From assembly GCA_021821025.1 (NCBI GenBank), contig JAKACY010000002.1:1-36872 (forward strand): 36,872 bases of DNA, written 5' to 3'. Origin of the DNA: Bacillota bacterium (lineage in GTDB: Bacteria > Bacillota > Bacilli > Alicyclobacillales > SLC66). Below are positions 9,781 through 36,872 of this stretch, one piece after another. The notes under the pieces are model-generated. The model did no database searches. It was not told where the DNA came from and worked only from the letters and a program-made list of their open reading frames with translations. Every line of letters begins with the position of its first letter. The stretch's first letter is position 1. The position numbers and the translations under genes were made by a program.

Positions 9781-11454
9781 TCAACCTTTCTTGTTGAGGC
9801 CCTCTAGGAACTTGATGTCCTTTTCGCTTTTCGTGAATGAACTAGTGTTAAACGGCTTACCCATGTATTGCTGGGTGGTTTGCAGGTACTGCTGCAGTCC
9901 AAGACCATTGAGTCCTTGGATGTAGGTGTTCCAGTCCTTGCTAAGAGACTTGGTGCCGGCGATAAACTGGTCCATCCACTGGTTTACGTAGTTGTCGATA
10001 TTCGTCTGGTACATAGCATACTGCTGGACTTGGTCGGACGGAATCCATGCAAATCCAGGGTACACCAGTTTCGGTTGATGCCCGGTGTTATTCATCTCAG
10101 TTTCCAACTGGAGCATGGATTCTGATCCTTCACCGGTGTTCGGCGGATACGCGACGTAACCGTTTCTCCACTTGAAAGATTGGTACATCGGGCCGAGCTG
10201 ATTCCAGCCCCAGTTCTGTTGGGAACTTCCATTGTAGAATTCATTAAAGTTGGTGTTGAATATCGCCTGAGTACCCATGAGCCCTTTCTGGCCCTTTTTG
10301 GCGTATGTCCAATATTTTCCTTCGGGTCCAAAGTCCATCATCTGTGTCCCCAGCGGCGTATAAAGGAAGTTGATGAGCTTCATCACGGCAATCTGTTGCG
10401 CCGGCGTTGATGTATTCGTCAACGCGAAGGTGGCGCCAGAAGGTGGCAGTCCGTAAAAGGGAGAGTAATTAATGCCCTTCGGCCCTTTCAGCGGAGCCAT
10501 GGATACCCAGTCATTGAAGTGACTTTGTGGTGTACCGTAATTGTTGATGACGCACTGTTTACATCCGTAAGGGAAAACGCCGACCTTTCCGCTGTTCACT
10601 TGTGCTTGCAATTGCGTGTTGTTCTGCGTCATTGCAGTTTTATCCATCAGACCATTGGCGTACAGGGTATGCAGGTACTCCAAACCTTGCTTCCAACCGG
10701 ATTGCGCGGGTGCGAAAGCCAACTTGCCCTTAGGGTTGATGAAAAAGTAATCCGAGTTGGAGCCGTTTTCGTCATCGTACACGAAGGAGTTCATCAGAAA
10801 GGTGGTGGGATTCGAATGCCATCCACCGCCAGGACCGACGGTCGCGCCAACTAGTGGATCGATGCCATGTTTCTTAAAGACTTCCAGCACATTTTCAAAC
10901 TGACCGGTTGTTGTCGGCATGGACAGATGGAATTTTTTTAAAAGTTTTACGTTGATCCACATCTTTGCGGACCAGTCGCAATGCCAGCACCAGTTGTACG
11001 CAGGCAAGCCGTAGATGTCCCCGTTTGGCGCGGTGACGCCCTGTTTAAATCCGGGAACGGTGTTGATGGCTTTCCAGGCGTTTGGCGCGTATTTCTTCAG
11101 GAGATTGTTCAGGGGGAGGAAAATTCCCTCTGTGCCGTACTGAAGCTCTTGCACCGGCGTGAAGCTTCCGCCCCAGAAGACAGGGGGGTATTTGCCGCTC
11201 TCTAAAAGAAGAGATTCCTTGGTCTGTTCGTCGCTAGCCGGTGCTTCCACCCAGGTGATATTCATGTTGAATTTCTTCTCGACGTACTTTGTGAACCAGT
11301 TGGTATTCATATTGATGATCTGCGTACTCGGTGAGGCGAACATCGACACCTGCACGGGGGATGCAGCCTCAGCGGCGGGAATTGAAAGAGGCGCAGTAAG
11401 CCCCAACATCGCCATCGCAGAGGCGATAAACCCGAACTTTTTCCATAATTTCAT
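9781..11454 (-). CDS. Large family-1 extracellular solute-binding protein (LplA-like) of a carbohydrate ABC importer
   Basis: 557 aa. Signal peptide MKLWKKFGFIASAMAMLGLTAPLSIPAAEA|AS with no lipobox Cys. Size and sequence style match LplA-type oligosaccharide binders. It is the last gene after two permease genes. Confidence 0.85.
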   Translation of the reverse strand: MKLWKKFGFIASAMAMLGLTAPLSIPAAEAASPVQVSMFASPSTQIINMNTNWFTKYVEKKFNMNITWVEAPASDEQTKESLLLESGKYPPVFWGGSFTPVQELQYGTEGIFLPLNNLLKKYAPNAWKAINTVPGFKQGVTAPNGDIYGLPAYNWCWHCDWSAKMWINVKLLKKFHLSMPTTTGQFENVLEVFKKHGIDPLVGATVGPGGGWHSNPTTFLMNSFVYDDENGSNSDYFFINPKGKLAFAPAQSGWKQGLEYLHTLYANGLMDKTAMTQNNTQLQAQVNSGKVGVFPYGCKQCVINNYGTPQSHFNDWVSMAPLKGPKGINYSPFYGLPPSGATFALTNTSTPAQQIAVMKLINFLYTPLGTQMMDFGPEGKYWTYAKKGQKGLMGTQAIFNTNFNEFYNGSSQQNWGWNQLGPMYQSFKWRNGYVAYPPNTGEGSESMLQLETEMNNTGHQPKLVYPGFAWIPSDQVQQYAMYQTNIDNYVNQWMDQFIAGTKSLSKDWNTYIQGLNGLGLQQYLQTTQQYMGKPFNTSSFTKSEKDIKFLEGLNKKG

Positions 11455-11569
11455 AGAATCACAGCCTCCTCACTTGACCTTCTGGATATGGCATACGTTG
11501 GTATGCCCCTGTCTGCTTTGAATCTGTTTTGAATCTGTTTTCTGTGCATGTAGGACCTGCTGCGGTTGC

Positions 11570-12517
11570 TCAGTCTTTCAAAGATCCAATCATCACCCCT
11601 TTGACGAAGTATCGTTGGGCCAGCGGATATAAAGCGACCATCGGAATGCTGCCGATGACGATGAGTGAGTATTTAAGGAGGGTTGCAACGTTTTGGTAGT
11701 AGATCAACTCTTGTGGAGATAGGGTGCTCATGAAACCAAACCCTCCCATGCTAACATTGTTAAACTCGAGAATCGAACGCAACACCATGATGAGTGGATA
11801 CAGTGAAGTTGAATTCAGGAAGATAAGTGCTGGAAAGTATGAGTTCCAGTCTGTGACCATGGTTAGCAGCGCAATGACGGCGATGATAGGCTTTGAAATG
11901 GGGATGACGATACGCATGAAGAATCCGAAATCACTCGCACCGTCAATCTCGGCAGCCTCGCGCAGTGCCTGCGGCACACTGGCTTGGAAAAACGTCTTCG
12001 CCAGGATGATTAGAAACACGTTTAATGCAAAGGGTACAATCTGTGACCATATGGTGTTGAGCATGCCGAGGTCTTGGACGACGATGTAAAATGGGATAAG
12101 CCCCCCGTTGAACATCAAGGCAAACAGTAAGAGCCAGACGAAAATCTTGCGACCCACGAGGTCTCGGACGGACAGAGGATAGGCCATTAGCAAGGTCAGG
12201 ATGACTGTTAACAGCGTGCCGCCTACTGAGTAGATAATAGAGTGCCAGAGCCCCGGTAATACCGTGTTGTAGCGAAAGACGGCAGAGTACCCATCGAGCG
12301 TAAAGTGGACCGGCCATAACCAGACCTTCCCGTCGATGACAGCCGCACCGGAACTTAGGGATGAGCTGATAATGTAGATCATCGGGTAGACAACTGCAAT
12401 GCCTATAGCGGTCAAGGAGCTATAGATAAGGATGAGAAATAGTCGGTCGCCCGTTGATTCCCGAACATGATTTCTATGCTCAGACGATTTTGTGAATTGG
12501 GTGCTTGGCAGTGACAT
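11570..12517 (-). CDS. Carbohydrate ABC transporter permease (LplC-like)
   Basis: 315 aa, multi-TM. The EAA-type loop reads ALREAAEIDGASDFGFFMRIVIP. Confidence 0.9.
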   Translation of the reverse strand: MSLPSTQFTKSSEHRNHVRESTGDRLFLILIYSSLTAIGIAVVYPMIYIISSSLSSGAAVIDGKVWLWPVHFTLDGYSAVFRYNTVLPGLWHSIIYSVGGTLLTVILTLLMAYPLSVRDLVGRKIFVWLLLFALMFNGGLIPFYIVVQDLGMLNTIWSQIVPFALNVFLIILAKTFFQASVPQALREAAEIDGASDFGFFMRIVIPISKPIIAVIALLTMVTDWNSYFPALIFLNSTSLYPLIMVLRSILEFNNVSMGGFGFMSTLSPQELIYYQNVATLLKYSLIVIGSIPMVALYPLAQRYFVKGVMIGSLKD

Positions 12518-12553
12518 CCAGTTTCCCCCCGTGCTCGATAAGATTATGTAGAC

Positions 12554-13528
12554 TTAGAACAGGCTGGTATCGGACACATATCGAGCAACGATATTGGCGA
12601 TGACCAATAGAATGAATCCGATGACGGAGTTGAATAGACCGACTGCGGTTGCAAACGAGAAGTTCGCGTCGACCAATCCTACCTGGTAGGTGTAGGTCGA
12701 GATGACCTGAGATGTGCTCATGTTCAGTGGGTTCTGCATGAGAAAGACCTCCTCCAAGGATGCGGCGTTCAACAGTCCACCAATTGCAAGAATCACGAGG
12801 ACGATGACGGTAGGTTTGATACCTTGCCAATCAATGTTTAGAATCCTCTGAAATCTCGAAGCGCCATCAATGCGCGCGGCGTCGTATAGTTCTGGATTTA
12901 CGTTAGATAAGGCTGCCAAGTAGATTACGGCTCCATATCCAGTTGTTTGCCAGACGCCAGACCAGACGTATAAAGATGAGAATGCGCCGGGGCTGGACAT
13001 CCAATCAGGGACGTTGCTCACGCCAAACAGGTGGAACAAGCCTGCAAGCGGGCTTGCGCTAGGCGCGAGCAAAATCTGCATCATTCCCACCAGGACCACG
13101 GCGGAAACAAAGTAGGGAATATAGGTAATGGTCTGGATTGTCTTTTTGAACCACAAGTGCTTGACTTCATTAAGCGCGATGGCGAGAACGATGGAAGCGA
13201 TGGTGCCGATGATGAGAGAGTAAACTCCGATGGTCAGTGTGTTATCGAGAGTCGGCCAAAAGTAGGGGGACTGGAGCCAGAACTGCATCTCCTGCATGCC
13301 TATCCACGGGCTGTGCCAGATTCCTCCAACGGGATTGTACATACGAAAGGCAATCTGAATTCCAAGCATCGGCCAATAGTTGAAAATAGCCAAAAAAGCA
13401 AGCGGAAGACTGATCATCGCGTACAGTTGCCAGTGTCGGATGATTCGCTTTGCCAGACTCTTTCTTCTGATACCGGCACCGATAGACACTTCGTTGGATG
13501 CGTTGACAGCGTTGATTGGGATCCCCAT
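12554..13528 (-). CDS. Carbohydrate ABC transporter permease (LplB-like)
   Basis: 324 aa with RBS AAGGGGAGGG. The N-terminus RHWQLYAMISLPLAFLAIFNYWPMLG and the loop YDAARIDGASRFQRILNI are typical of LplB/YteP permeases. No ATPase gene is present, as is usual for CUT1 systems that use a shared MsmX-type ATPase. Confidence 0.9.
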   Translation of the reverse strand: MGIPINAVNASNEVSIGAGIRRKSLAKRIIRHWQLYAMISLPLAFLAIFNYWPMLGIQIAFRMYNPVGGIWHSPWIGMQEMQFWLQSPYFWPTLDNTLTIGVYSLIIGTIASIVLAIALNEVKHLWFKKTIQTITYIPYFVSAVVLVGMMQILLAPSASPLAGLFHLFGVSNVPDWMSSPGAFSSLYVWSGVWQTTGYGAVIYLAALSNVNPELYDAARIDGASRFQRILNIDWQGIKPTVIVLVILAIGGLLNAASLEEVFLMQNPLNMSTSQVISTYTYQVGLVDANFSFATAVGLFNSVIGFILLVIANIVARYVSDTSLF

Positions 13529-13809: not shown

Positions 13810-13871
13810 AATCATACATGATTTATTGTTGTAACTGCCGACATTCTATTACGAATTTTCCGACTTGTCAA
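13810..13871 (-). promoter_or_regulatory. Minus-strand promoter TTGACA-17-TAGAAT with downstream operator AATCATGTATGATT (plus coordinates 13810..13823), upstream of the ABC importer operon
   Basis: The reverse complement reads ggTTGACAagtcggaaaattcgtaaTAGAATgtcggcagttacaacaataAATCATGTATGATT. The -35 box is at 13866-13871 and the -10 box at 13843-13848. The same 12-mer core occurs at 13932 and 20421. Confidence 0.5.
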
Positions 13872-14436: not shown

Positions 14437-14691
14437 GACCATCCGGGATCGGTCCGGGCAGTATTGAATCGGAACTCATCATGTTCAGGTAGATCGAACA
14501 ATGGTTGGGAGAAATACCGCAACTCACGATTCAGAATATTCATCAGCTTGTGTATGATAGTAAAGGATCGTAGCATGGTAGGATGGTATTTTGGCCAGTG
14601 AGGAGTCCGGTTACGGGGAATTAGTGGGTCCTTTTGAAAAGTAAAGTACGAGAAGCTTTAAATTCCTTAAGACACGGTGGGGTGGATCAGA

Positions 14692-15528
14692 ATGGACCGG
14701 ATTGACGCGCACCAACACTACTGGAAGTTGGATCGTGGAGACTACGCCTGGTTGACTCCGGAGTATGGTCCCTTGTACCGGGACTTTCTTCCGCAGGACC
14801 TTCGTCCCTATTTAGACAGTTGTGGTATTTCAAAGACAATTGTTGTACAGGCTGCGCCGACCGTGGAAGAAACAGAGTTCTTACTCAAACTTGCTGACAA
14901 CCACCCTTCCATTGCCGGTGTTGTCGGTTGGTTGAATTTGGAGTCCGATGATTTTCCTGCAAAATTGCAACGCATGTCTCGGCATCCAAAGTTTGTAGGC
15001 ATTCGGCCCATGCTTCAGGATCTGCCGCAAGACGATTGGATCCTGAGACGGCAAGTAGTGGACAATGTCGCGATTATAGTGGAGCAAGAAATTCCGATGG
15101 ACATCCTGGTTTTCCCACGCCACCTACCGTACATTTCTCGCCTCTTACAAATGTTCCCCAAGCTGCATGGGGTCATTGACCATTTAGCCAAGCCGCCGAT
15201 CCATGCGCGGGTTTTGGAACCTTGGCGTTCCCTCATCGCTGAAATTGCAGAGTATCCATCTGTCATGTGCAAACTTTCCGGGATGGTGACAGAAGCAGAT
15301 CATGAAAACTGGAAGCCATCTGACCTACGTCCATACGTTGAACATGTCCTAAGCGTCTTCGGACCGGATCGAGTGATGTTCGGCAGTGACTGGCCAGTGT
15401 GTACAGCGGTTGCCGATTATGAGACGGTTTACCAGACTCTTCAGGATCTGCTACCGAAGGACTTATCTCATGAGAAATGGGATCTTATCTTTGGTGGAAA
15501 TGCCGCAAGATTTTACGGAATCGAGTGA
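14692..15528 (+). CDS. Amidohydrolase_2 (COG3618) family; candidate L-fucono-/L-galactono-1,5-lactonase
   Basis: ATG 14692 follows GGTGGGGTGGA. The N-terminus MDRIDAHQHYW, then VIDHLAKPPI, CKLSGMVTEA and MFGSDWPVC, match the COG3618 sugar-lactonase pattern. Confidence 0.8.
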   Translation: MDRIDAHQHYWKLDRGDYAWLTPEYGPLYRDFLPQDLRPYLDSCGISKTIVVQAAPTVEETEFLLKLADNHPSIAGVVGWLNLESDDFPAKLQRMSRHPKFVGIRPMLQDLPQDDWILRRQVVDNVAIIVEQEIPMDILVFPRHLPYISRLLQMFPKLHGVIDHLAKPPIHARVLEPWRSLIAEIAEYPSVMCKLSGMVTEADHENWKPSDLRPYVEHVLSVFGPDRVMFGSDWPVCTAVADYETVYQTLQDLLPKDLSHEKWDLIFGGNAARFYGIE

Positions 15529-18647: not shown

Positions 18648-20183
18648 TTAGCGTAAGCCAAGCCGAAGTAACTGCTCTTCCGGTGCCCCGAGTTCCTTAA
18701 GCGTATTTTTGAGTCGCAACTGGAGTTCGGCCACCTTGTCGGGGTGGGACCGTGATAGGTTGATAAGTTCGTTCGGATCATTTTCTTTATCGCTAAGCCA
18801 CGTCTCAGTTTCCCATGAAACGCAATGATGGACCTGACGCCGGCCTGGGCGATAGGAGTGAACGGTCAGTGACTCGTCAGATGGCTCGCTCTCATACGGC
18901 CCTAACTCATAGGGGAGAAAGCGAGCCATGTGATGTCCATACCAGTAAAGCGGTTGGTTATCCTGGCAAGGCGATTGGTGAAGGATCCAGCGACCGTCAG
19001 TTAATGTGACGCTTTTTCCAAACTGTCCGGCTATGGCATACGATCGAATCGAGGTGTTAGGATCCAGCAGGACGGGATGGAGGTCTATTCCATGCCGTCC
19101 GGGTGGGCACGGTTTGTTCAGGGCACTGAGGACGGTCGGATATATGTCTACGAGTTGCACCAACTGACTTCGGCGTGTTCCAGCCTTTGCATCCGGGTGT
19201 GCCACAATAAAGGGGATATGTCCTACCGCGTCGTGTTCGTGTGTCTGCAGCTTTCCCAGTCTGCCGTGGTCCCCGTTATAAGTACCATGATCAGAAGTAA
19301 AAATAACCATCGTGTTGCGCCATAGGTTTAGTTCGTCCATCTTGTCGAGGAGTTTTCCCAACCACTTATCCACTAGCATCACGTGAGCGGCATAGCGGGC
19401 TTGGTAGTGACGTAGTTCATCGAAGGACATGTGGTTTCGCCAATGGTCGTAGGGGGCCATCGAACGCCAATGAGGTATATTGTAGCCGCGCGGGTCGAAT
19501 CGTTTAACCAGTTTCTCAGGCGCGTCCCAAGGTTCGTGCGGATCAAAACAGTCTACGTGAAGGTAGAACCCCTCATATGTGTGGTTATGTTCCAGCCAAT
19601 CTGCCGCCTTCGTAAAAACCTGAGCTGAAAAAGTATCCTTTTCATCGTGGTGCGTAAGGTGGACATTGCGAAAATGACGTTCTGTTTTATGAAAGGGTGG
19701 GTCTGGGTTAGGAAATGTGACAGGGTTAGTTTTCCAAGCGTCCGCCTCGTGCCCGCGAATAAACTCAAATCCGGAGTAACCCATATGGTAGTTACCTGAT
19801 CCTTGCTCCCACAAGTGAAAATGATCTGTGACGAGATAACTAATCGAAAAGCCTTCCGCTTGTACCTTTGCAAGCGACTGATTGGGTGGGCCCGAAACTT
19901 GACGAGGCAGATCCAGGTCTTCGTCCTCTAAAGGTCCCCAGCCGCGTTCGAGAAACTCATAGCGTCCTGTATAGATATCTCTACGAGCTGGCATACACGG
20001 GGTTGATCCGCACCATGCATGATCAAATACCACTCCGCGGGCAGCAAGCCGATCCATGTTCGGCGTCGGAACAGTCCATTCTGCCTGCTCCGGGCCTGTT
20101 ACCTGAGAGAGTGGCAGGCCATGATGATAAGGGCCACAATGATCCCTGCGTAGAGTATCACATAAGATAACGATGCAATTCAT
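18648..20183 (-). CDS. Cys-type (formylglycine-dependent) sulfatase, no signal peptide
   Basis: 511 aa. N-terminal metal-site context IVILCDTLRRDH. The CxPxR motif TPCMPARRDIYTGRY is encoded at 19983..19997 (reverse complement tgt atg cca gct cgt). A later block reads FTSDHG. Confidence 0.85.
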   Translation of the reverse strand: MNCIVILCDTLRRDHCGPYHHGLPLSQVTGPEQAEWTVPTPNMDRLAARGVVFDHAWCGSTPCMPARRDIYTGRYEFLERGWGPLEDEDLDLPRQVSGPPNQSLAKVQAEGFSISYLVTDHFHLWEQGSGNYHMGYSGFEFIRGHEADAWKTNPVTFPNPDPPFHKTERHFRNVHLTHHDEKDTFSAQVFTKAADWLEHNHTYEGFYLHVDCFDPHEPWDAPEKLVKRFDPRGYNIPHWRSMAPYDHWRNHMSFDELRHYQARYAAHVMLVDKWLGKLLDKMDELNLWRNTMVIFTSDHGTYNGDHGRLGKLQTHEHDAVGHIPFIVAHPDAKAGTRRSQLVQLVDIYPTVLSALNKPCPPGRHGIDLHPVLLDPNTSIRSYAIAGQFGKSVTLTDGRWILHQSPCQDNQPLYWYGHHMARFLPYELGPYESEPSDESLTVHSYRPGRRQVHHCVSWETETWLSDKENDPNELINLSRSHPDKVAELQLRLKNTLKELGAPEEQLLRLGLR

Positions 20184-28569: not shown

Positions 28570-28647
28570 ATGATTCGTCGACTTGGTCACGTTGCGCTGA
28601 CGGTGGGGGACATGGAAAAATCCCTGGATTTTTATTATACAAGATGA
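28570..28647 (+). pseudogene. N-terminal 25-codon stub of a glyoxalase/VOC-family gene
   Basis: MIRRLGHVALTVGDMEKSLDFYYTR* matches the first beta-alpha-beta unit of VOC proteins (HV.L.V.D.e.S..FY), then stops. Confidence 0.4.
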
Positions 28648-28692
28648 AGGATAAGTTTGAAGGCAGTCTGTTTGGTTCCTGGAATCCCGTAG

Positions 28693-28824
28693 CTTTTTAA
28701 GTATCTAAAGATCGGATACGCATCTGCAATAGGATGGATTCTGCTCGTCATTGCTTTGATCGGTACGATTGGCCTGTTGCTGTTAACAGGCCAAATTGGT
28801 AGTCGCACTCACGATTTAGGTTAG
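28693..28824 (+). pseudogene. C-terminal stub of a sugar ABC permease
   Basis: LFKYLKIGYASAIGWILLVIALIGTIGLLLLTGQIGSRTHDLG* resembles the last TM helix and tail of MalF/LplB-type permeases (GYASA....L.vi....t). There is no upstream coding continuity. Confidence 0.35.
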
Positions 28825-28936
28825 CGACTTATTGATTTATTTGTCGATATGGGTTTTGGGGTGCTCTTTTCGGCTAAAGATAGGTTCTTGATCAACTCAT
28901 CTTAGCCTTACGGAAAGCACCTTCAGTAATTATCGG

Positions 28937-29064
28937 AAGTGGCGATCTAGCAAAAAACAGCTTACAGCGGCTGTTGGGCCCTAGAATACAGACTCGGTGG
29001 CAGTGAAGAGCTGGGCGAAGCGGTGGACTTGGCTGAACGAAACGGAGCAGTATGTCTGCGATAG
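28937..29064 (+). pseudogene. 3'-terminal remnant of a second TIM-barrel isomerase gene (paralog of 27739..28512)
   Basis: 28951..29064 reads QKTAYSGCWALEYRLGGSEELGEAVDLAERNGAVCLR*. The intact gene reads LQKAGYSGCWALEYRLGSSEYLGVAVDLAELKRAV. Nucleotide similarity to 28395..28510 is visible by eye. Confidence 0.65.
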
Positions 29065-29909
29065 GCTGCGGGAGTTGAATTCGTGTGTTTGACAAACGTT
29101 CGATGAAAATGGGGGAGGCTAGAAAATCCGCACAATTCCGCAATGACCGCAATATTGTCCTCTGTGTTGCATAAAAGCTCACGCGCCAGGATGATTCTCT
29201 TGACGGTGATGTAGTCGACGAAGCTCATACCTGTCATCTGCCGAAATACGCGGCTAAAGTGCGAGGAACTGACGTTGACTTGATTTGAGAGTTCATGTAG
29301 GGAAATGGGATTTACAAAATTTTCCTCGATATAATGTAGCGCCTTATTCAACCACCTAGGTCCGAGTGAATCCATATTCGCCGAATGATCGGAGAACTGG
29401 AAAACCTCCCTATAGAGCTGCAGGAGCATCATTCGCAATTCTAGCACGACCGCACTGCGGTACCCGAACTGTTGCCGGTTCATCTCATCGAAGAGGATAT
29501 CGATTTTAGTCTGCACCACTGTTTGATGACTTGGTGCCAGTGGGAAGCGATAGATTTTATTTTTGGCGGTTTCTTCCATCACGCGGTGATAAGAAAATGG
29601 ATCACCGAGTGTTTCTGATAGAATGATCGGTGGTCGAAAGAATATGGCGGTGGATGTAACTGGTTGTGCGCTGTCCGGTATCGCTCTGTGAATCGTGTTA
29701 GCTGGAATCACAAATAGATCGCCAGCTGACATGGTATAAACGGTGTTGTCGATAAAGAATATTCCATTGCCGCCGTACACATAAACGATTTCATGCCAGT
29801 CGTGGAAATGATCCGGTAGTTCGTGATCCGGGATCTTCGTATCACGATAGACGAGTGTAAAGGGAAACAGTGTGCTATGCATCTGCATGTCCTTACGAAG
29901 CGGATTCAA
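28962..29909 (-). CDS. AraC family transcriptional regulator (cupin sensor plus HTH)
   Basis: N-terminal cupin motif HDWHEIVYVYGGNGIFFIDN...GDLFVIPANTIH. C-terminal HTH_18 (ISLHELSNQVNVSSSHFSRVFRQMTG ... GFSSLPHFHRTFVKHTNSTPAAYRR). The last 29 or so codons are non-homologous and antisense to the remnant at 28937..29064. Confidence 0.85.
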   Translation of the reverse strand: MNPLRKDMQMHSTLFPFTLVYRDTKIPDHELPDHFHDWHEIVYVYGGNGIFFIDNTVYTMSAGDLFVIPANTIHRAIPDSAQPVTSTAIFFRPPIILSETLGDPFSYHRVMEETAKNKIYRFPLAPSHQTVVQTKIDILFDEMNRQQFGYRSAVVLELRMMLLQLYREVFQFSDHSANMDSLGPRWLNKALHYIEENFVNPISLHELSNQVNVSSSHFSRVFRQMTGMSFVDYITVKRIILARELLCNTEDNIAVIAELCGFSSLPHFHRTFVKHTNSTPAAYRRHTAPFRSAKSTASPSSSLPPSLYSRAQQPL

Positions 29910-30091
29910 GGCTCAATTCCTCCTCGTCAATCTTGGTCTCAGTATATATCAAAATGAGGTACATATATGCGCAATTTTGACATTTTCATATAGAAACGAT
30001 GCATTATGATGAAAGTACAGGGCGAGCTGGCAATGAGGTGGACCCTTGGTTCTTGAGGACGGGGCGGGTTGGAGTTGAAGGGAGTCCAGTT

Positions 30092-31120
30092 ATGAAGGCG
30101 ATTTCTTGTATAAAACCATTTGAATTTCAGTTGGTGGATATCGAAAAACCTGCGAAGCGCGCTGGGGAAGCACTGATTCACGTAAGGCGAGTAGGGGTGT
30201 GTGGCACAGATATTCATGCGTTTCATGGTAACCAACCGTATTTTACCTATCCGCGGATACTGGGGCATGAGATCGCGGGCGTGATCGAGGAACTTGATGA
30301 TGGTGTGGATGGATTTTTCGTGGGTGATCAGGTCGCAGTCGTTCCGTACATGCACTGCGGCAAATGCATCGCCTGTCGCAACGGCAAGCCGAACTGCTGT
30401 ACAGATATGCGAGTTCTCGGCGTGCATATCGATGGGGCCATGGCAGAGTGGATCAGCGTTCCGGTTACGCACCTGGTTAAAACGAACGATCTGACTCTGG
30501 ACCAGTCGGCAATCATTGAGCCTTTGAGTATCGGTGCGCATGCGGTACGCCGCTCCGGCATTACGAAAAATGATTCGGTTCTAGTGATCGGTGGGGGTCC
30601 CATAGGGCTTGGAGTGATGGCTTTTGCTAAACGCAAAGGGGCCAATGTGGTCGCGATGGATACGAATGTAGAACGCTTAGAGTTTTGTCGAACTTGGGCA
30701 CACATCAATGCGAGTGTAAGCGCTTTTGACCAACCGATGGAGGCAATTACAGCGCAAATCACCGCGAACTTCGGAGGTGAATATCCCACTGCCGTGTTTG
30801 ATGCGACAGGCAGTGTGGGATCGATGAACTCAGCGCTGCAGTACGTGGCTCATGGCGGCAAACTGATTTTTGTTGGGCTGGTGAAAGAAAACGTCACATT
30901 CCCGGATCCTGAATTTCACAAGCGTGAAACGACTTTGCTAAGTAGCCGCAACGCCACACGGGAGGATTTTCAAGAGGTTCATAAGGCGATGGTAGAGGGA
31001 TTTATCGATGATACGAAATACATCACTAACCGCATCGCATTTGCTGATCTCGCAGATGAATTTGAGCGGATCACAAGCCCTGAGGCGAAAGCGATCAAGG
31101 TGATCGTGGACCTTATTTAG
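30092..31120 (+). CDS. Zn-dependent medium-chain dehydrogenase, L-galactonate 5-dehydrogenase (LgoD/YjjN)-like
   Basis: ATG 30092 lies 7 nt after GAAGGGAG. Motifs: VGVCGTDIHAFHGNQPYFTYPRILGHE, a structural-Zn Cys cluster (HCGKCIACRNGKPNCC), GGGPIGLG and FPDPEFHKRETTLLSSRNAT. It is close to my recollection of E. coli LgoD. The specific substrate is inferred. Confidence 0.85.
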   Translation: MKAISCIKPFEFQLVDIEKPAKRAGEALIHVRRVGVCGTDIHAFHGNQPYFTYPRILGHEIAGVIEELDDGVDGFFVGDQVAVVPYMHCGKCIACRNGKPNCCTDMRVLGVHIDGAMAEWISVPVTHLVKTNDLTLDQSAIIEPLSIGAHAVRRSGITKNDSVLVIGGGPIGLGVMAFAKRKGANVVAMDTNVERLEFCRTWAHINASVSAFDQPMEAITAQITANFGGEYPTAVFDATGSVGSMNSALQYVAHGGKLIFVGLVKENVTFPDPEFHKRETTLLSSRNATREDFQEVHKAMVEGFIDDTKYITNRIAFADLADEFERITSPEAKAIKVIVDLI

Positions 31121-31200
31121 CAGTGTACATCCAGAAAATGTGGAGATCAGGAACCGTTACAAGAAGTTTTGTCTATTCTTCGCCGTATTCGTGATGTCAC

Positions 31201-33225
31201 ATGCTCGAGCTGATTGCCGACTTATCGATATTGGGGGTAGATTTAGTGGATCAAGTATTGGAGTTTCCGAAACGAACTATTCATTTAGACTTTCATACGG
31301 GGCCATGGGTACCTGATGTCGGTAAGGACTTCGATCCGGAGCGGTTTGCCGCCACGTTTAAGAAAGCGCACGTGGATAGCGTGACGGTCTTTGCTATGTG
31401 TCACCATGGGCACTTGTATTACGACACTGAGCATTCGGCGCGTCATCCGAGCCTTCCTCAGGGGCTTGATCTGTTGGGAGAGCAGATTACAGCGCTTCAC
31501 AACGTTGGTATCCGGGCGCCGATTTATATCAGTGTGCAGTGCAACGAATATGCGGCCAATACGCACCCGGAGTGGCTCGCTCTCACCCCTGATCTTCAGC
31601 AGGTCAAGTGGGGCAAGTCCGCCTTTCGGCCCGGATGGCAAATCCTAGACATGTCCAGCCCTTATCAGGATTATGTGGCAGATATTTTGGCTGATGTATT
31701 GGATCGATTTGCGCCAGTGGATGGGATTTTTATGGATATGTGCTGGGATCAGCCTAGTTCCTCCAAATGGGCGATCGCAGCGATGTTGGAACGCGGCTAT
31801 GATCCCGCCAATGAATTAGATCGTTCAAAGTATGCGCGAGAATTGGTCCACCAATATATGAAACGTTACCGCGATATGGTAGAGCAAGCCCAGAGGCAGT
31901 TTAAACCTGCGGGAGTTTGGTTTAACAGTAGACCAAAGACTAATTTGAATGAAGAGAAAAAGTTTCTTCGCCACGTGGAAATTGAGGCCCTTCCCACGGG
32001 GGGATGGGGATATGCGTATTTTCCTTACGTGGCGCGTTTTGTTAGGCCGCTGGGTTTGCCTACTTTGAGCCATACTGGACGTTTCTTCAAGAGTTGGGGC
32101 GACAATACTTCGTTAAAACCGAAGATGGCTCTTAAATATGAGTGTTGCCAGATTTTAAGTCAAGGTATGACGAGTGGCGTTGGCGATCTGCTTCATCCTC
32201 GCGGTGTCCCGAATCAAGCAGTGTATGATTTGATCGGAGAGGTTTACGAATATATTGAGGCCTGCGAACCGTACGTAGAGGGAGGGAAGCTACTCAGTCA
32301 AATCGCTGTGATTACCGATCCCAAATTAGGAGATAACCCTGGGCCATCTGGTGTTGGCACTGTTCGGGCATTGCAACAATTACGCCATCAATTTGACATC
32401 TTATCATCTAAATCGGAACTCACTCCTTATGAACTGGTTATCATTCCTGAAACTACGCATGTCGATGAAAACCTCAAAGAAAAACTTGAAATCTATTTGC
32501 AAGGTGGAGGGTCTTTGATCGTTTGTGGCCCGGCCGCACTGGATGATCATGGTCAACCTATCATGCCTGAGTTGGGTGTTGAAGCTCATGGGCAGAGCCC
32601 GTTTACTCATACATTTTTGCATGCTGCCCAGCAGGTCTCTGAAGGTCTTGAAGATTACGGATATGTGATGTATGAACCTGGGTTCCGTATGACTGCGTTA
32701 CCAGAGGCTGAAACGCTTGTGCTTGTGGGCGAGCCTTATTTTGAACGGGCATTCAATCATTTTTCGGGTCATGACTACACACCAGAAGATCAGTTGACCT
32801 CGTACGCTGCGGCTGTGAAGAATGGCAAGGTGATCACATTTTCTGTGCCTATTCTTGAAGCGTATGGCAAGCATGCGGCCCCAAATTATCGCACGCTTTT
32901 CGGCAATTGCATCAAGCTTTTAATGTCTGAACCGATCATTAAAGATGAGGGACCAAGCAAATTAGAGACTACGGTCGTGCGAAAGGGAACCACCACGGTA
33001 GTTCATCTACTCAGCTTTTGTCCGGAGAGGCGCGCCGCCGACCTCGATATTGTGGAAGATCCATTTCCTATCGTCGACATGCCCATCGCTGTCAAAGTGA
33101 ACCGTCAACCCCGTCGGGTTTTCTTGGCGCCCGTAGAAAGGGAACTGCCTTTTGCGTACAAGGATGGCTATGTTCATACAACAGTTACTGTGTTAGATGG
33201 CCACGCGATGTTAGTCATCGAGTAG
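31201..33225 (+). CDS. Uncharacterised putative glycoside hydrolase (GHL6-like N-terminal TIM barrel plus GH42-type trimerisation-like middle domain)
   Basis: 674-aa ORF. GTG 31246 has the better RBS (GGGGG, 8-nt spacing). IHLDFHTGPWVPDVGKDFDPERFAATFKKAHVDSVTVFAMCHHGHLYYDT matches the remembered GHL6 (PF14871) signature. No signal peptide. Confidence 0.7.
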   Translation: MLELIADLSILGVDLVDQVLEFPKRTIHLDFHTGPWVPDVGKDFDPERFAATFKKAHVDSVTVFAMCHHGHLYYDTEHSARHPSLPQGLDLLGEQITALHNVGIRAPIYISVQCNEYAANTHPEWLALTPDLQQVKWGKSAFRPGWQILDMSSPYQDYVADILADVLDRFAPVDGIFMDMCWDQPSSSKWAIAAMLERGYDPANELDRSKYARELVHQYMKRYRDMVEQAQRQFKPAGVWFNSRPKTNLNEEKKFLRHVEIEALPTGGWGYAYFPYVARFVRPLGLPTLSHTGRFFKSWGDNTSLKPKMALKYECCQILSQGMTSGVGDLLHPRGVPNQAVYDLIGEVYEYIEACEPYVEGGKLLSQIAVITDPKLGDNPGPSGVGTVRALQQLRHQFDILSSKSELTPYELVIIPETTHVDENLKEKLEIYLQGGGSLIVCGPAALDDHGQPIMPELGVEAHGQSPFTHTFLHAAQQVSEGLEDYGYVMYEPGFRMTALPEAETLVLVGEPYFERAFNHFSGHDYTPEDQLTSYAAAVKNGKVITFSVPILEAYGKHAAPNYRTLFGNCIKLLMSEPIIKDEGPSKLETTVVRKGTTTVVHLLSFCPERRAADLDIVEDPFPIVDMPIAVKVNRQPRRVFLAPVERELPFAYKDGYVHTTVTVLDGHAMLVIE

Positions 33226-33334
33226 GCTTGTACGGAGGACTCGTCATATTGGATCGATTCTCAAGAGACGCTGTGACTTTGTTGTTGTGCACTTTGCAGG
33301 CGAAGATGATGACTTCTATCGAGGAATGATCCTT

Positions 33335-34045
33335 ATGTCGTCGTTTCATGTAGCATCCAGGGGGACGAAGATTAGGCATTGGACGCTGTGGATCATTAGT
33401 GGGGCTTCGTCCCTTTTGATAGCGGGTGCTGTCTGGTTTTATGTTCATATCCAACCAAGCGTGCAGTCAGATCGTTCGGGCCCTTATTTTTCGCAAAGTC
33501 CAATCCCCTTAAAGCAAGGAACTCAGGTGGGGCTATTATTTGCCCCGTACGGTGATCAACCATCAGGAGGTCAGGGGATGCCCGTTGACGCAATAGCGGC
33601 TGATCGAACGGATCAGGACGCGTATCATACGCATGTGCATCTAAGCCTGTACGTGAACGGGAAACAGGCGGCGGTTCCGGCTGGTATTGGTATTGTTCCT
33701 CCCTGGATAGGTTCGCCCAACGTATTTATTGATGGTGGACGCGCCATGTACTGGCTTCATACGCATGACAATACAGGCATTATTCACATCGAGTCTCCTG
33801 GAAGACGGAACTTTACCCTCGGAAACTTCTTCGATATCTGGGGAGTTAAATTGTCGCAGAATCAATTTTTGAATATCCGGACTAAAGTCACCACTTTTGT
33901 TAACGGCATCCTGTACAAAGGAGATCCAACCACTATTGAGTTGACGCCTCATAAACAGATTACCCTGGAGCTGGGGGCCCCAATTGTGTTGCCTGAGAAA
34001 TACGCATGGCCGGCCTCCCTGCTGAAAACAGAAACGGTACATTGA
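33335..34045 (+). CDS. Membrane-anchored hypothetical protein with two His-rich motifs
   Basis: The preferred start is ATG 33335 (GAGGA 9 nt upstream); the ORF is open from GTG 33287. It has one N-terminal TM helix (WTLWIISGASSLLIAGAVWFYV), then the motifs YHTHVHLSLYVNGKQ and YWLHTHDNTGIIHIESP. I can assign no function. Confidence 0.6.
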   Translation: MSSFHVASRGTKIRHWTLWIISGASSLLIAGAVWFYVHIQPSVQSDRSGPYFSQSPIPLKQGTQVGLLFAPYGDQPSGGQGMPVDAIAADRTDQDAYHTHVHLSLYVNGKQAAVPAGIGIVPPWIGSPNVFIDGGRAMYWLHTHDNTGIIHIESPGRRNFTLGNFFDIWGVKLSQNQFLNIRTKVTTFVNGILYKGDPTTIELTPHKQITLELGAPIVLPEKYAWPASLLKTETVH

Positions 34046-34068
34046 TACTTTAGTGTTATTTTAGCTGA

Positions 34069-34260
34069 CTTGGCTTTTGTCTCATCGGCCCAGACCGGAT
34101 TATGTACGGCAGCGATTGGCCTGTGTGTCTATTGGCTGCAACATATGATGATGTTTACACAATAGCTAATGAATCGCTTCCACAGAATTTATCACAGGAG
34201 GAAAGGGAACAAATCTTTGGCAAAGCAGCTATCAAATTTTACAAGTTCATACGAGGAGTG
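34069..34260 (+). pseudogene. 3'-terminal remnant of a second COG3618 lactonase gene, in frame with the downstream GH29
   Basis: LIGPDRIMYGSDWPVCLLAATYDDVYTIANESLPQNLSQEEREQIFGKAAIKFY parallels the C-terminus of 14692..15528 (FGPDRVMFGSDWPVCTAVADYETVYQTLQDLLPKDLSHEKWDLIFGGNAARFY). Everything upstream of it is missing. Confidence 0.7.
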
Positions 34261-34266
34261 ATGAGG

Positions 34267-35694
34267 ATGAAGATGGAAATTGCACGGGGACCCTTTGAAC
34301 CTACCTGGGAGTCTCTTAGACAGTTTGACTGCCCGGAATGGTTCCGCGACGCTAAACTTGGCATATGGTCTCATTGGGGGCCGCAATCGGTGCCGATGTA
34401 CGGGGATTGGTATGCGCGCAACATGTATATGGAAGGGTCAGATCAGTACCGGTACCACCTGCGCAAGTATGGTCACCCGTCGAAATTTGGCTATAAGGAT
34501 GTGGTCAAATTATGGCGGGCAGAACACTTTGATCCAGACGCCTTGATGGATTTGTATGTCGCTGCTGGCGCACGCTATTTTACGGCGCAAGCTGCCCATC
34601 ACGACAACTTCCATAACTGGAATAGCCGTCATCACCACTGGAACGCCTTTGAGATGGGGCCGAATAAGGACATCGTCGGCATGTGGCGCGATGCTGCGTT
34701 GAAACGAGGACTGCGATTTGGGATTACGGAGCATATTGGCGCGTCATTTTCGTGGAGTAAGCCGAATAAGGGCGCGGATGAGAGTGGTCCGTATGCGGGT
34801 ATTTCATATGATGGCGCCAATCCTGATTGGGTGGATCTTTATTTGCCGAATCAAAATGACACGAAAGATTGGTACACAGACGACCCCAGTTGGCATGAAA
34901 AGTGGTTTTTGTATATGAAAGATTTGATCGATCAATACCAGCCCGACTTGCTCTACTCAGACGGTGGCGTCCCGTTTGGCGATGTTGGACTCTCTGCCAT
35001 CGCTCATTTGTACAACACCAGCGCGCAGCAAAACAGCGGCGTGAATCAGGCGGTGTATAACCAGAAGGATCGAGACGAAAAGGTATATCAGGTCGGGGTA
35101 CTTGATATTGAGCGAAGTCAGCTCCCAGATATAAGGAAGGATGTATGGCAGACAGACACCTGCGTCGGGCACTGGTTTTACGATGTTCGGGCAGTCTATA
35201 AGACGCCCAAACAGGTCGCAGAAATCCTCGTCGATATCGTGAGTAAAAATGGCAATCTCCTATTGAACATTCCACAACGTCCAGACGGGACGCTCGATGA
35301 TGAATGCTTATGGGTCCTCGAAGGGATGGCCAAATGGATTCGGGTTAACGGGGAAGGGATCTACGGTACACGCCCATGGATGCAGGCAGGGGAAGGACCA
35401 TCACAGGTTGTCATCGACCACTTTAAGGAGAACACAGTGGATTGGACGATCGAAGATTTCCGATTTACCAGTAAGGGAAATGCAGTTTATGCCTTCCAAA
35501 TGAAGTGGCCGGAGGGCGGACGGACGGTCATTCGCAGTATGGCTGGTGGCAAAGTGGGGCGTGTGGCATCCGTGGAGTTGTTGGGTGTGAAAGAAGCGTT
35601 ACAGTTCGAACAGACCGAGCGTGGGTTGGTGATTGCATTGCCGGCTCAAAAATCATCCGATTATACGCAATGTTTAAAAGTGGTGTTCGAATAG
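34267..35694 (+). CDS. GH29 alpha-L-fucosidase (paralog 5, divergent subtype), no signal peptide
   Basis: ATG 34267 lies 8 nt after GAGGAG. Motifs: KLGIWSHWGPQ, QAAHHDNFHNWNS, DLLYSDGGV and NGNLLLNIPQRPDG. It is longer (475 aa) and clearly more divergent than paralogs 1-4. Confidence 0.85.
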   Translation: MKMEIARGPFEPTWESLRQFDCPEWFRDAKLGIWSHWGPQSVPMYGDWYARNMYMEGSDQYRYHLRKYGHPSKFGYKDVVKLWRAEHFDPDALMDLYVAAGARYFTAQAAHHDNFHNWNSRHHHWNAFEMGPNKDIVGMWRDAALKRGLRFGITEHIGASFSWSKPNKGADESGPYAGISYDGANPDWVDLYLPNQNDTKDWYTDDPSWHEKWFLYMKDLIDQYQPDLLYSDGGVPFGDVGLSAIAHLYNTSAQQNSGVNQAVYNQKDRDEKVYQVGVLDIERSQLPDIRKDVWQTDTCVGHWFYDVRAVYKTPKQVAEILVDIVSKNGNLLLNIPQRPDGTLDDECLWVLEGMAKWIRVNGEGIYGTRPWMQAGEGPSQVVIDHFKENTVDWTIEDFRFTSKGNAVYAFQMKWPEGGRTVIRSMAGGKVGRVASVELLGVKEALQFEQTERGLVIALPAQKSSDYTQCLKVVFE

Positions 35695-35762
35695 ACTTTG
35701 TCGGTTGCGCCAATATGGAAGATCGATCTGAATGAGTGCAGCCTCGAAAGGACGGCGTGACG

Positions 35763-36089
35763 ATGAAAAGATATGGGATGGTCATCAGATTGAGACCTGA
35801 AAAACGCGAAGAGTATATCGAGTTGCACCGTGCTGTTTGGCCCGGTGTGCTAGAGACGATACGCCAGTGCAAGATCACGAACTACTCCATTTTCCTAAAA
35901 GACGACCTTCTCTTTAGTTACTATGAGTACATCGGTGAGGATTACGAGGCTGACATGCGTAAAATGGCTGACGATCCGGTGACACAAAAATGGTGGACCC
36001 TATGCGATCCTTGTCAGCAACCTTTGGAAGCTTGTGCCGAGGGTGAGTGGTGGGCGCAGATGGCGGAGGTCTTTCATTTTGAATCGTGA
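35763..36089 (+). CDS. L-rhamnose mutarotase family protein (RhaM/YiiL, DUF718)
   Basis: 108 aa from ATG 35763. MKRYGMVIRLRPEKREEYIELHRAVWPGVLETIRQCKITNYSIFL...WW is the family pattern. Confidence 0.8.
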   Translation: MKRYGMVIRLRPEKREEYIELHRAVWPGVLETIRQCKITNYSIFLKDDLLFSYYEYIGEDYEADMRKMADDPVTQKWWTLCDPCQQPLEACAEGEWWAQMAEVFHFES

Positions 36090-36184
36090 GTATTGCCGAC
36101 CCGATCCCCAATGTGGGCGCAGGTGTTGCGGTCCTGGAACATTGAGTTTGTTGAGCCGCCGACATGGTGGATTGGATTTCGACG

Positions 36185-36221
36185 GCGATATCAGCCTTTA
36201 AGACGAAAAGGCTGATATCGC
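36185..36221. terminator. Perfect 15-bp hairpin between convergent genes (candidate bidirectional terminator)
   Basis: GCGATATCAGCCTTT / AAAGGCTGATATCGC with the 7-nt loop aagacga. U-tracts are weak on both strands. Confidence 0.5.
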
Positions 36222-36288
36222 ATCCAAACGACGCCCAACGTCTCTTTCACTTAGGCGTGGGGCTACTTTACTTCTAAAAGAAGGCACG

Positions 36289-36872
36289 TTAAGGGTGAAC
36301 CGCCAGGGCCTGTGAAACTTCACGGTTGTACTGATCTCTGAGTACGCTTAGCGCTGTAAGCGAATAACCGTATGTAGTCAGCTTTGCGCGCAGGGCGAAT
36401 AAAATACTATTCACTTGGTCTTGCGCATTATTTTCTAACGATGCGATTTGCGGGTAATATTGCCGTTCGATCGCAGCCTTTGATCCTTTTCCTGCATGAT
36501 ACGCCGCGCGTGCCTGGTTGTAGATGGCGGTTGCGGCTCCGACATACTGCGCCTGCAAGGCATTAAGTTGTGACGAATAGATGCTCACGATCTGCGATTC
36601 TGAAGGTTTAGTTGTAGTCGTTTTGGTGGTTGAGGACGAGCCTGAACTCCCGCGATTTGGTGTTGATCTGTTTGTTGTCAAACCGCTTTGCGCCAAACCT
36701 GTCCCAGCCGACTCTGCAGGAAGGTGATGCGATTTTGTGCTGCTGCGACTGATCGGAGTGGTCTGCGATACTCTGGATGTGCCGTTTGCTGTCGAAACGT
36801 TGGCTGTTCTCGGTGGCTTGGCGCCTGCTTCATTCTGGTTTGGTCCGTTGTGGACCGCAGTAGTCCCGTTCT
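36289..36872 (-). CDS. Hypothetical protein, 5'-partial (open to the window edge): S/T/N-rich low-complexity region plus a helical C-terminal domain
   Basis: The minus-strand frame stays open from 36872 down to the stop at 36289. The upstream part is low complexity (NGTSRVSQTTPISRSSTKS...SSGSSSTTKTTTTKPS). The C-terminal 90 or so aa are Ala/Gln-rich and helical. No family was recognised. Confidence 0.5.
   Translation of the reverse strand, partial: NGTTAVHNGPNQNEAGAKPPRTANVSTANGTSRVSQTTPISRSSTKSHHLPAESAGTGLAQSGLTTNRSTPNRGSSGSSSTTKTTTTKPSESQIVSIYSSQLNALQAQYVGAATAIYNQARAAYHAGKGSKAAIERQYYPQIASLENNAQDQVNSILFALRAKLTTYGYSLTALSVLRDQYNREVSQALAVHP

Follow-up and report, generated by a model that had tools for sequence, protein, structure and literature searches.

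Alpha-L-fucosidase activity has been demonstrated for members of CAZy family GH151, namely Blon_0346, isoenzyme 2 of Paenibacillus thiaminolyticus (ALfuk2), and Mfuc3, and there is one crystal structure for the family, 6TVK (PMC10154630, PMC4723247). GH151 enzymes hydrolyze aryl-alpha-L-fucoside and the disaccharides Fuc-Gal/Fuc-GlcNAc, and they can transfucosylate (PMC10154630, PMC4723247), retention of configuration being itself deduced from this transglycosylation (PMC10154630). In ALfuk2, the functional residues are the nucleophile Asp154, the acid/base Glu235, and His503, which comes from the neighboring subunit (PMC10154630). The natural substrates are poorly defined, with activity seen only on aryl-fucoside and disaccharides (PMC10154630, PMC4723247). 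When given 2'-FL and 3-FL, Mfuc3 liberated 0–2% of their fucose, and it has been questioned by some authors whether GH151 members are genuine fucosidases (PMC4723247).

The window, i.e. the whole 36,872-nucleotide stretch of DNA analyzed here, carries an island of fucose catabolism that comprises five GH29 genes, a lactonase, an aldo-keto reductase (AKR), an enolase-superfamily dehydratase, a mutarotase, a sulfatase, and ABC importer genes. We focus on a further gene of this island, for which a preliminary description had proposed a new glycosidase activity.

Gene product, family, and fold

The gene is an intact reading frame on the forward strand (31201–33225), encoding 674 aa when counted from ATG 31201; residue numbering throughout refers to this frame. 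The in-frame GTG 31246 is the more likely start, giving a predicted GH151-family alpha-L-fucosidase gene at 31246–33225 with a 659-aa product. This start is preferred because a Shine-Dalgarno-like GGGGGT run (31233–31238) lies ahead of it, orthologues are ∼656–665 aa long with N termini ∼5 residues ahead of the LxFPKR motif, and residues 1–17 have a pLDDT below 50 in the AlphaFold model. The N terminus has no hydrophobic stretch, and the first barrel strand is found already at residue 25, which leaves no room for a signal peptide. As judged from its sequence, the gene product is an intact, cytoplasmic enzyme. The 660–674-aa cytoplasmic protein announced in the preliminary description is borne out, and the peptide quoted there (IHLDFHTGPW...HLYYDT) corresponds to residues 27–76.

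As assessed by a Pfam HMM search, the best domain match of the protein is GHL6 (PF14871; 1.6e-31, 109.7 bits versus a cut-off of 35), which covers residues 45–180 and the full profile (positions 1–132). A profile search of the genome sequence finds the same domain at 31333–31740 (113.7 bits), and a search of NCBIfam with the protein gave no match. The GHL6 assignment made earlier therefore stands, whereas the accompanying statement that this family lacks an experimentally defined activity is outdated, since Blon_0346, ALfuk2, and Mfuc3 are active (PMC10154630, PMC4723247) and Mfuc3 is explicitly described as matching pfam14871 (PMC4723247). GHL6 is the catalytic domain of CAZy GH151, not an orphan family.

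The fold leads to the same family. A phmmer search matched PDB 6TVK (P. thiaminolyticus ALfuk2) over its full length (residues 25–674 versus 33–686; E 3.5e-94, 319.7 bits). In the AlphaFold model (pLDDT 88.5, pTM 0.88), we found the three-domain GH151 architecture. The catalytic (beta/alpha)8 barrel, whose strand/helix alternation is seen by DSSP, spans residues ∼25–360, with its GHL6-matching core at 31333–31740 (+). It is followed by a central alpha/beta domain resembling the GH42 trimerization (middle) domain (32293–32880, +; residues ∼365–560), delimited by a Glyco_hydro_42M match and the secondary structure of the model, and by a C-terminal beta-sandwich (32923–33222, +; residues ∼575–674, all-beta over 580–673) that aligns with the C-terminal domain of 6TVK. 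The top Foldseek match is again 6TVK (E 6e-62, TM 0.91/0.93, rmsd 2.4 Å, 30% identity over 669 columns). The protein thus resembles ALfuk2 in being collinear over its full length, in fold, and in lacking a signal peptide, and it resembles Mfuc3 (soil metagenome, GenBank KJ626338) in combining GHL6 with a beta-galactosidase middle domain at a similar size (75.6 kDa for Mfuc3).

Two other families had to be weighed. The GH29 profile PF01120 gives a partial match only (38.2 bits, profile positions 92–274 of 345), outscored by GHL6, and the sole GH29 enzyme among the PDB chains matched is 6GN6, weakly (E 0.0094). The barrels of the two families are distantly homologous, and both families are expected to retain configuration by means of an Asp nucleophile, but GH29 enzymes have other middle and C-terminal domains, and the GH151 active site is completed by a neighboring subunit. 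Membership in GH29 was rejected on the strength of the partial, outscored profile match and the weak PDB match. A GH42-like beta-galactosidase or alpha-L-arabinopyranosidase is suggested by the three-domain architecture and by the Glyco_hydro_42M match (residues 389–443), which at 26.9 bits just exceeds the cut-off of 25.8. GH42 beta-galactosidases and GH164 beta-mannosidases, which also combine a barrel, an alpha/beta middle domain, and a beta-sandwich, indeed form the second tier of Foldseek matches (TM ∼0.65, 10–15% identity; GH42 structures 0.62–0.69). However, there is no Pfam Glyco_hydro_42 catalytic-domain match, and the GH42 structures align at 11–15% identity with an rmsd of 6–8 Å (the same rmsd range applies to GH164), against 30% and 2.4 Å for GH151. 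The PDB sequence search returned no GH42 chain within E 0.01, and Mfuc3, in which these two domains are likewise paired, is inactive on pNP-beta-Gal, pNP-beta-Glc, and pNP-beta-Lac (PMC4723247). GH42 and GH164 enzymes also differ in stereochemistry and specificity. Because the middle domain alone matches and fold and identity are far closer to GH151, we rejected a GH42 enzyme, which we consider extremely improbable.

Predicted active site and subfamily

The catalytic residues of ALfuk2 were taken from a review (PMC10154630) and mapped by hand through a HMMER alignment to 6TVK, whose chain numbering is offset by 29, a value confirmed at two positions (Asp154 and His503). The preliminary description had looked to a structure comparison for a catalytic acid/nucleophile pair. 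Such a pair is present, predicted from the alignment to be Asp179 and Glu262. Asp179 (codon 31735–31737, +) aligns with ALfuk2 Asp154 and is the predicted nucleophile. It is the last residue of a strand in the model (176–179, the end of strand 4) and is invariant in 40 orthologues as well as in the ALfuk2-type and L033-type paralogues. Glu262 (codon 31984–31986, +), in the motif HVEIEALPTGGWGY, aligns with Glu235 and is the predicted general acid/base. It ends strand 6 (259–262) and is likewise invariant in the 40 orthologues, the corresponding residue being Glu in ALfuk2-type paralogues and Asp in L033. His524 (codon 32770–32772, +), the counterpart of ALfuk2 His503, is invariant both in the 40 orthologues and in all 28 sequences of an alignment that includes three paralogue types. 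It sits in a loop of low pLDDT (57–72) in the monomer model and, by analogy with what is reported for ALfuk2, probably reaches into the adjacent subunit to complete its active site.

Taken together, the sequence, the GHL6 domain, the modeled architecture, and the predicted catalytic pair identify the 31201–33225 product as a member of GH151. HMM and structure comparisons thus place it in a glycoside hydrolase family of known specificity, and the new activity once proposed gives way to one more predicted fucose-releasing enzyme of the island, since GHL6 corresponds to GH151 with its known fucosidases. The barrel-strand motifs HLDFHT, CHHG, and LPTGGWGY, common to the protein and to ALfuk2-type paralogues, point together with the conserved catalytic residues to the release of fucose itself. 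We found no support for the earlier suggestion that the enzyme removes a sugar capping or underlying the fucose.

The protein belongs to a widespread group. At least 120 relatives were found, all matches listed being at least 59% identical to it and coming from Bacillota, Spirochaetota, Lentisphaerota, Planctomycetota, Sumerlaeota, and Chloroflexota; the nearest among them share 76–78% identity. Close relatives are labeled "alpha-amylase family protein" or "hypothetical protein" by NCBI. In a quick IQ-TREE phylogeny with SH-aLRT support only, this window-type clade is deeply split from the ALfuk2 type, with 28–30% identity and long branches. Three residues, Asp183, Trp240, and Arg294, are invariant in the window-type clade, versus Val/Glu, Phe, and Lys in the ALfuk2 type. 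Some Paenibacillus genomes carry both types at once, and this coexistence suggests non-redundant specificities; the true ALfuk2 orthologues in these genomes score 967–989 bits against 6TVK. ALfuk2, the characterized enzyme compared here, thus falls outside the window-type clade, and the window protein belongs by sequence to a deep GH151 subfamily apart from the 6TVK type.

These differences could also signal that the GH151 fold acts here on a different or modified glycone, either as an alpha-L-galactosidase or as an enzyme that releases sulfated fucose or needs a sulfated substrate, working alongside sulfatases rather than after them. The distance from the ALfuk2 type, the clade-specific invariants, and the coexistence of both types all fit such a reading, as does the fact that the literature treats the true GH151 substrate as unsettled; sequence alone cannot discriminate between an L-fucose and an L-galactose glycone. 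On the other hand, the catalytic residues and the three motifs are those of the proven fucosidase type, and the sequence data give no specific sign of an L-galactose or a sulfate-binding pocket.

Gene neighborhood in the window and at orthologue loci

The genes around the GH151 gene are largely those of the preliminary description, with some amendments. Upstream, a divergent AraC-family gene (28962–29909, − strand; Pfam cupin/AraC_binding and HTH_18) is the presumed regulator of a unit made of dehydrogenase, GH151, GH29, and mutarotase genes. No copy of the GntR operator palindrome of the island was found between 28646 and 36872, suggesting that control is separate from that of the upstream GntR-regulated operons. 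Promoter and terminator scans yielded sites no more numerous than in shuffled sequence and are thus uninformative on co-transcription. The first gene of the unit encodes a Zn-dependent medium-chain dehydrogenase (30092–31120, +; ADH_N and ADH_zinc_N) of RspB/LgoD-like type. Its best PDB match is RspB (4ILK, 1.3e-50); its best NCBIfam match is PRK10083, at 209.8 bits, below the cut-off of 376. An alpha-L-galactosidase downstream of it would fit such a dehydrogenase. The last two genes are the fifth and most divergent GH29 alpha-L-fucosidase of the window (34267–35694, +), which has a Fucosidase_C domain and shares 21–25% identity with the other four GH29 paralogues, and a RhaM-family mutarotase (35736–36089, +; Pfam rhaM, 1.4e-32). 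The neighbors of the GH151 gene, including GH29, a fuconolactonase-like gene, an enolase-superfamily dehydratase, and the mutarotase, are overwhelmingly fucose-related, which argues against a modified glycone.

Two elements that the preliminary description leaves out separate GH151 from GH29. One is an ORF of 252 aa (33287–34045, +) with a hydrophobic start and clustered His motifs, which has no Pfam or NCBIfam match and interrupts the sugar operon. The other (34075–34242, +) is what remains of an amidohydrolase-2 gene (L-fucono-1,5-lactonase-like), reduced to its last 56 codons. By tblastn, this remnant is 48% identical to residues 225–280 of the intact paralogue at 14677–15528, the first 224 residues of which have no counterpart beside it, and it matches positions 236–289 of 289 in Pfam Amidohydro_2 and 238–285 in the NCBIfam L-fucono-1,5-lactonase model. 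The decayed stretch spans 33226–34266, and in none of the ∼25 orthologue loci are the GH151 and GH29 genes separated by an intact lactonase. Because the remnant and the inserted ORF indicate that the operon is decaying, expression of the GH151 gene is not assured. The same two elements could mean that the GH151 gene is itself an inactive or decaying relic of a degenerating operon. Nevertheless, its reading frame runs unbroken for 2 kb, it keeps all family-invariant residues along with the high identity to its nearest listed relatives noted above, and it yields a high-confidence model. A pseudogene was rejected on these grounds, and we regard a relic as very unlikely.

We compared ∼25 orthologue contexts, in which the fucose-related company of the gene is recurrent. 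GH29 directly adjoins the GH151 orthologue in three of them (L003, L015, and L020) and an MR_MLE dehydratase in two (L010 and the P0053 contig), while an ADH, AKR, or rhaM gene is close by in L020, L005, L026, L021, and the P0009 contig. A Zn-ADH lies immediately upstream in L020, at 32–37% identity; an ADH of 59% identity is found ∼7 kb away in L016, and the rhaM of L021 is 64% identical. The comparison also brought out sulfatases, which directly adjoin the GH151 orthologue in L002, L005, L013, and the P0009 contig and lie at most 8 kb away in L016, L019, and the P0053 contig. With 7 of ∼25 contexts having a sulfatase within 8 kb, the association is recurrent, not universal. No space for a signal peptide is left in the sulfatases of L002, L005, and L016 or in one of the L013 sulfatases, and the intergenic gap between GH151 orthologue and sulfatase is often almost nil. 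The sole sulfatase of the window, encoded at 18648–20183 and likewise leaderless, is located 11 kb from the GH151 gene, in another operon. Direct adjacency of sulfatases in several lineages adds to what favors a modified glycone; weighed against the shared fucosidase motifs and the fucose-related neighbors, we judge that possibility improbable.

Predicted role in fucose catabolism

On the basis of sequence and model, the gene product is most probably a retaining exo-alpha-L-fucosidase of CAZy GH151 that works in the cytoplasm as an oligomer. Fuco-oligosaccharides would enter the cell through an ABC importer, for instance the one encoded at 9781–13528, and the five GH29 enzymes and GH151 would then trim them in the cytoplasm. 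By analogy with characterized members, GH151 presumably prefers very short substrates, roughly the size of a disaccharide. The L-fucose set free would be anomerized by the RhaM-type mutarotase and then oxidized by the non-phosphorylative route of the island, via AKR or Zn-ADH, lactonase, and enolase-superfamily dehydratase. Counted against the predicted fucosidase role were the ∼30% identity to the sole structurally characterized GH151 enzyme and the weak activity of characterized members on natural substrates.

The earlier view of the protein as a candidate for a new activity is sound insofar as GH151 natural substrates are poorly defined, but family activity is already established on alpha-L-fucosides. 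Blon_0346 (Bifidobacterium longum subsp. infantis), reported like Mfuc3 to be active on alpha-L-fucosides, belongs to a human-milk-oligosaccharide context, whereas the window gene is part of a fucose-catabolism island in which a sulfatase is also encoded. Because close orthologues repeatedly adjoin leaderless sulfatases, in many cases nearly without a gap, the subfamily probably acts in nature on sulfated-fucan oligosaccharides, which would be cleaved after cytoplasmic desulfation. A more specific version, which we offer as possible but rather unlikely, is that window-type GH151 enzymes are the cytoplasmic partners of leaderless sulfatases, specialized for sulfated-fucan oligosaccharides, and may tolerate or need a sulfated or L-galactose glycone. 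If this is true, loci of this type would show what GH151 acts on in nature.

These findings have a bearing on annotation, as the Pfam name of PF14871 is still "Hypothetical glycosyl hydrolase 6", although the domain marks GH151 alpha-L-fucosidases with a solved structure. The island accordingly holds six fucosidase-type genes, not five plus one of unassigned role. For the family, a phylum-spanning GH151 subfamily, apart from the crystallized enzyme and linked to cytoplasmic sulfatases and fucose catabolism, provides a testable lead on the natural substrate of GH151.

A GH151 protein matching GHL6

As described previously, an unbroken ORF spans 31201-33225 (+) and encodes 674 aa counted from the first ATG, which is the frame used for residue numbers here. 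Translation probably begins at an in-frame GTG (31246), giving a protein of 659 aa, because a ribosome-binding-like GGGGGT run lies just upstream (31233-31238), relatives are ∼656-665 aa long with a consensus start ∼5 residues ahead of the LxFPKRTIHLDFHTGP block, and residues 1-17 are disordered in an AlphaFold model. The N-terminal peptide quoted in the preliminary description corresponds to residues 27-76. The protein displays neither a signal peptide nor a hydrophobic N terminus, indicating that it is cytoplasmic. There is one GH151 gene in the assembly, a 2.5-Mb MAG in 261 contigs that is 81% complete.

A Pfam search identifies GHL6 (PF14871, 1.6e-31) at residues 45-180, as had been recognized from the sequence, together with a weaker and partial GH29 match and a marginal match to the GH42 trimerisation domain. 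The decisive evidence comes from a search of solved structures, in which residues 25-674 are collinear with residues 33-686 of PDB 6TVK (E 3.5e-94). This entry is α-L-fucosidase isoenzyme 2 (ALfuk2) from Paenibacillus thiaminolyticus, which represents CAZy family GH151 structurally (PMC10154630). The AlphaFold model, built on 40 relatives (mean pLDDT 88.5, pTM 0.88), superposes on 6TVK with TM-scores of 0.91/0.93 and an rmsd of 2.4 Å at 30% identity. The runners-up, three-domain enzymes of GH42 and GH164, score far lower (TM ∼0.65, 10-15% identity). [quoted passage not shown] Mfuc3, which hydrolyzes pNP-fucoside, was reported in 2016 to match "GHL6 (pfam14871)" and a β-galactosidase middle domain (PMC4723247). 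The GHL6 domain is thus the GH151 catalytic barrel and no orphan family, and the earlier view that it has no defined activity is outdated.

In ALfuk2, the nucleophile Asp154 ends strand 4, the acid/base Glu235 ends strand 6, and the pocket is completed by His503 of the adjacent monomer (PMC10154630). Using an offset of 29 for 6TVK chain numbering, checked independently at the Asp and the His in the structure-search alignment, these residues align with Asp179 (motif IFMDMC), Glu262 (motif HVEIEALPTGGWGY), and His524 (motif FSGHDY), all of which are invariant in 40 orthologues. In the model, the predicted strands 176-179 and 259-262 end in Asp179 and Glu262, respectively. His524 lies in a loop of low confidence in the monomer model, as expected if this segment is ordered only in the oligomer.

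The fucose-utilisation island

The window is a fucose-utilisation island. Besides regulators and ABC importer genes, it encodes five GH29 enzymes, a leaderless sulfatase, an aldo-keto reductase, a dehydratase of the enolase superfamily, and an intact lactonase of the amidohydrolase-2 type. The immediate context of the GH151 gene is as originally reported, with a divergent AraC-family regulator (28962-29909, −) and a Zn-dependent dehydrogenase of the RspB/LgoD-like group (30092-31120) upstream, and a GH29 gene (about 34267-35694) and a RhaM-family mutarotase (35736-36089) downstream. Copies of the GntR operator palindrome ATCATGTATGAT occur at positions 13811, 13932, and 20421, and none was found at ≤2 mismatches in the AraC-ADH-GH151-GH29 region (28646-36872); this unit is therefore probably regulated apart from the rest of the island.

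The stretch separating the GH151 gene from the GH29 gene (33226-34266) holds two further features, which the preliminary description does not include. One is a stump of an amidohydrolase-2, fuconolactonase-like lactonase consisting of the last 56 codons (34075-34242), which shares 48% identity with the corresponding end of its intact paralogue (14677-15528) and is joined in frame to the GH29 ORF with no intervening stop codon. The first ∼224 codons are missing and their space within this sugar operon is filled by the other feature, an unrelated 252-aa ORF (33287-34045) that begins with a hydrophobic stretch, contains clustered His motifs (HTHVH, LHTHD), and has no Pfam or NCBIfam match. Either true decay of the operon or a join made in assembling the MAG could account for the remnant.

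A GH151 subfamily and its genomic neighbors

The closest relatives among the matches listed are very many (59-78% identity), variously named "hypothetical protein," "alpha-amylase family protein," "Beta-galactosidase trimerisation domain...," or "alpha-L-fucosidase," and are found in Paenibacillus and in uncultured Spirochaetota, Lentisphaerota, Planctomycetota, Sumerlaeota, Chloroflexota, and others. Alongside a window-type copy (70-74% identity), three Paenibacillus genomes encode paralogues with just 28-36% identity to it. Against 6TVK, two of the paralogues reach 967-989 bits, compared with only 320 bits for the window protein, and are thus true ALfuk2 orthologues; a third paralogue type (L033) scores 384 bits. 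In a quick maximum-likelihood tree, the 24 window-type sequences form one clade (SH-aLRT 99) separated by long branches from the ALfuk2 clade, which places the window gene in a distinct GH151 subfamily. The crystallized enzyme ALfuk2 falls outside this subfamily.

The third type (L033:1492-3555, Paenibacillus psychroresistens) is 34-36% identical to either other type, with Asp replacing the acid/base Glu and the LPTGGWGY motif carrying QTS instead of GGW. All three types share an invariant Glu two positions before the acid/base (Glu260 in the window protein). Paenibacillus glycanilyticus carries two window-type copies ∼25 kb apart on one contig (L001 and L003), both with 74% identity to the window protein. 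One follows an ABC importer, and the other is flanked by a GH29 gene and a GH106-like gene of 1255 aa. At another locus, a second, shorter GHL6 protein (L024:13109-14950, 613 aa) with a weak GHL10 match is encoded 2 kb downstream of the GH151 orthologue and may represent another uncharacterized GHL6 architecture.

Gene neighbors vary among the ∼25 orthologue loci compared, and the same themes return. GH29 is an immediate neighbor at L003, L015, and L020, and an MR_MLE dehydratase at L010 and on the P0053 contig; Zn-ADH, AKR, RhaM, and xylose-isomerase-like TIM-barrel genes and ABC importers also recur. Sulfatases abut the orthologue at L002 (two), L005, L013 (both sides), and on the P0009 contig, and lie ≤8 kb away at L016, L019, and on the P0053 contig. 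Most adjacent sulfatases are leaderless, since their catalytic domain begins ∼10-20 residues after the ORF start. A cassette of FGGY kinase, Zn-ADH, GatZ/KbaZ-like, aldo-keto reductase, and Fe-ADH genes also recurs beside close orthologues (L026:238-6696; L005:682-4470; L027:2189-4729), possibly an alternative pathway of reductive/phosphorylative type for L-fucose or a different 6-deoxyhexose.

Predicted function

The window protein is likely a plain exo-α-L-fucosidase. The non-fucose activity proposed in the preliminary description found no support. L-Fucose and L-galactose glycones are indistinguishable by sequence, and the dehydrogenase upstream is RspB/LgoD-like; an altered glycone or substrate is improbable. 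On the most economical reading, fucose-rich oligosaccharides, probably from sulfated fucans, would be taken up and would lose their sulfate in the cytoplasm; this GH151 enzyme and the GH29 set would cut the desulfated products down to L-fucose, and the freed sugar would enter the oxidative pathway. This fucan link fits current views and is not new, because fucoidan-degradation papers already name GH151 among the expected exo-fucosidases. Characterized GH151 enzymes are active on aryl-fucoside and disaccharides only and perform poorly on natural glycans of larger size (PMC10154630, PMC4723247), and two papers openly question their standing as genuine fucosidases or the identity of their natural substrate. 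The coupling of the window-type subfamily, which excludes the only structurally characterized relative, to cytoplasmic sulfatases offers a modest lead on the natural substrate of GH151.
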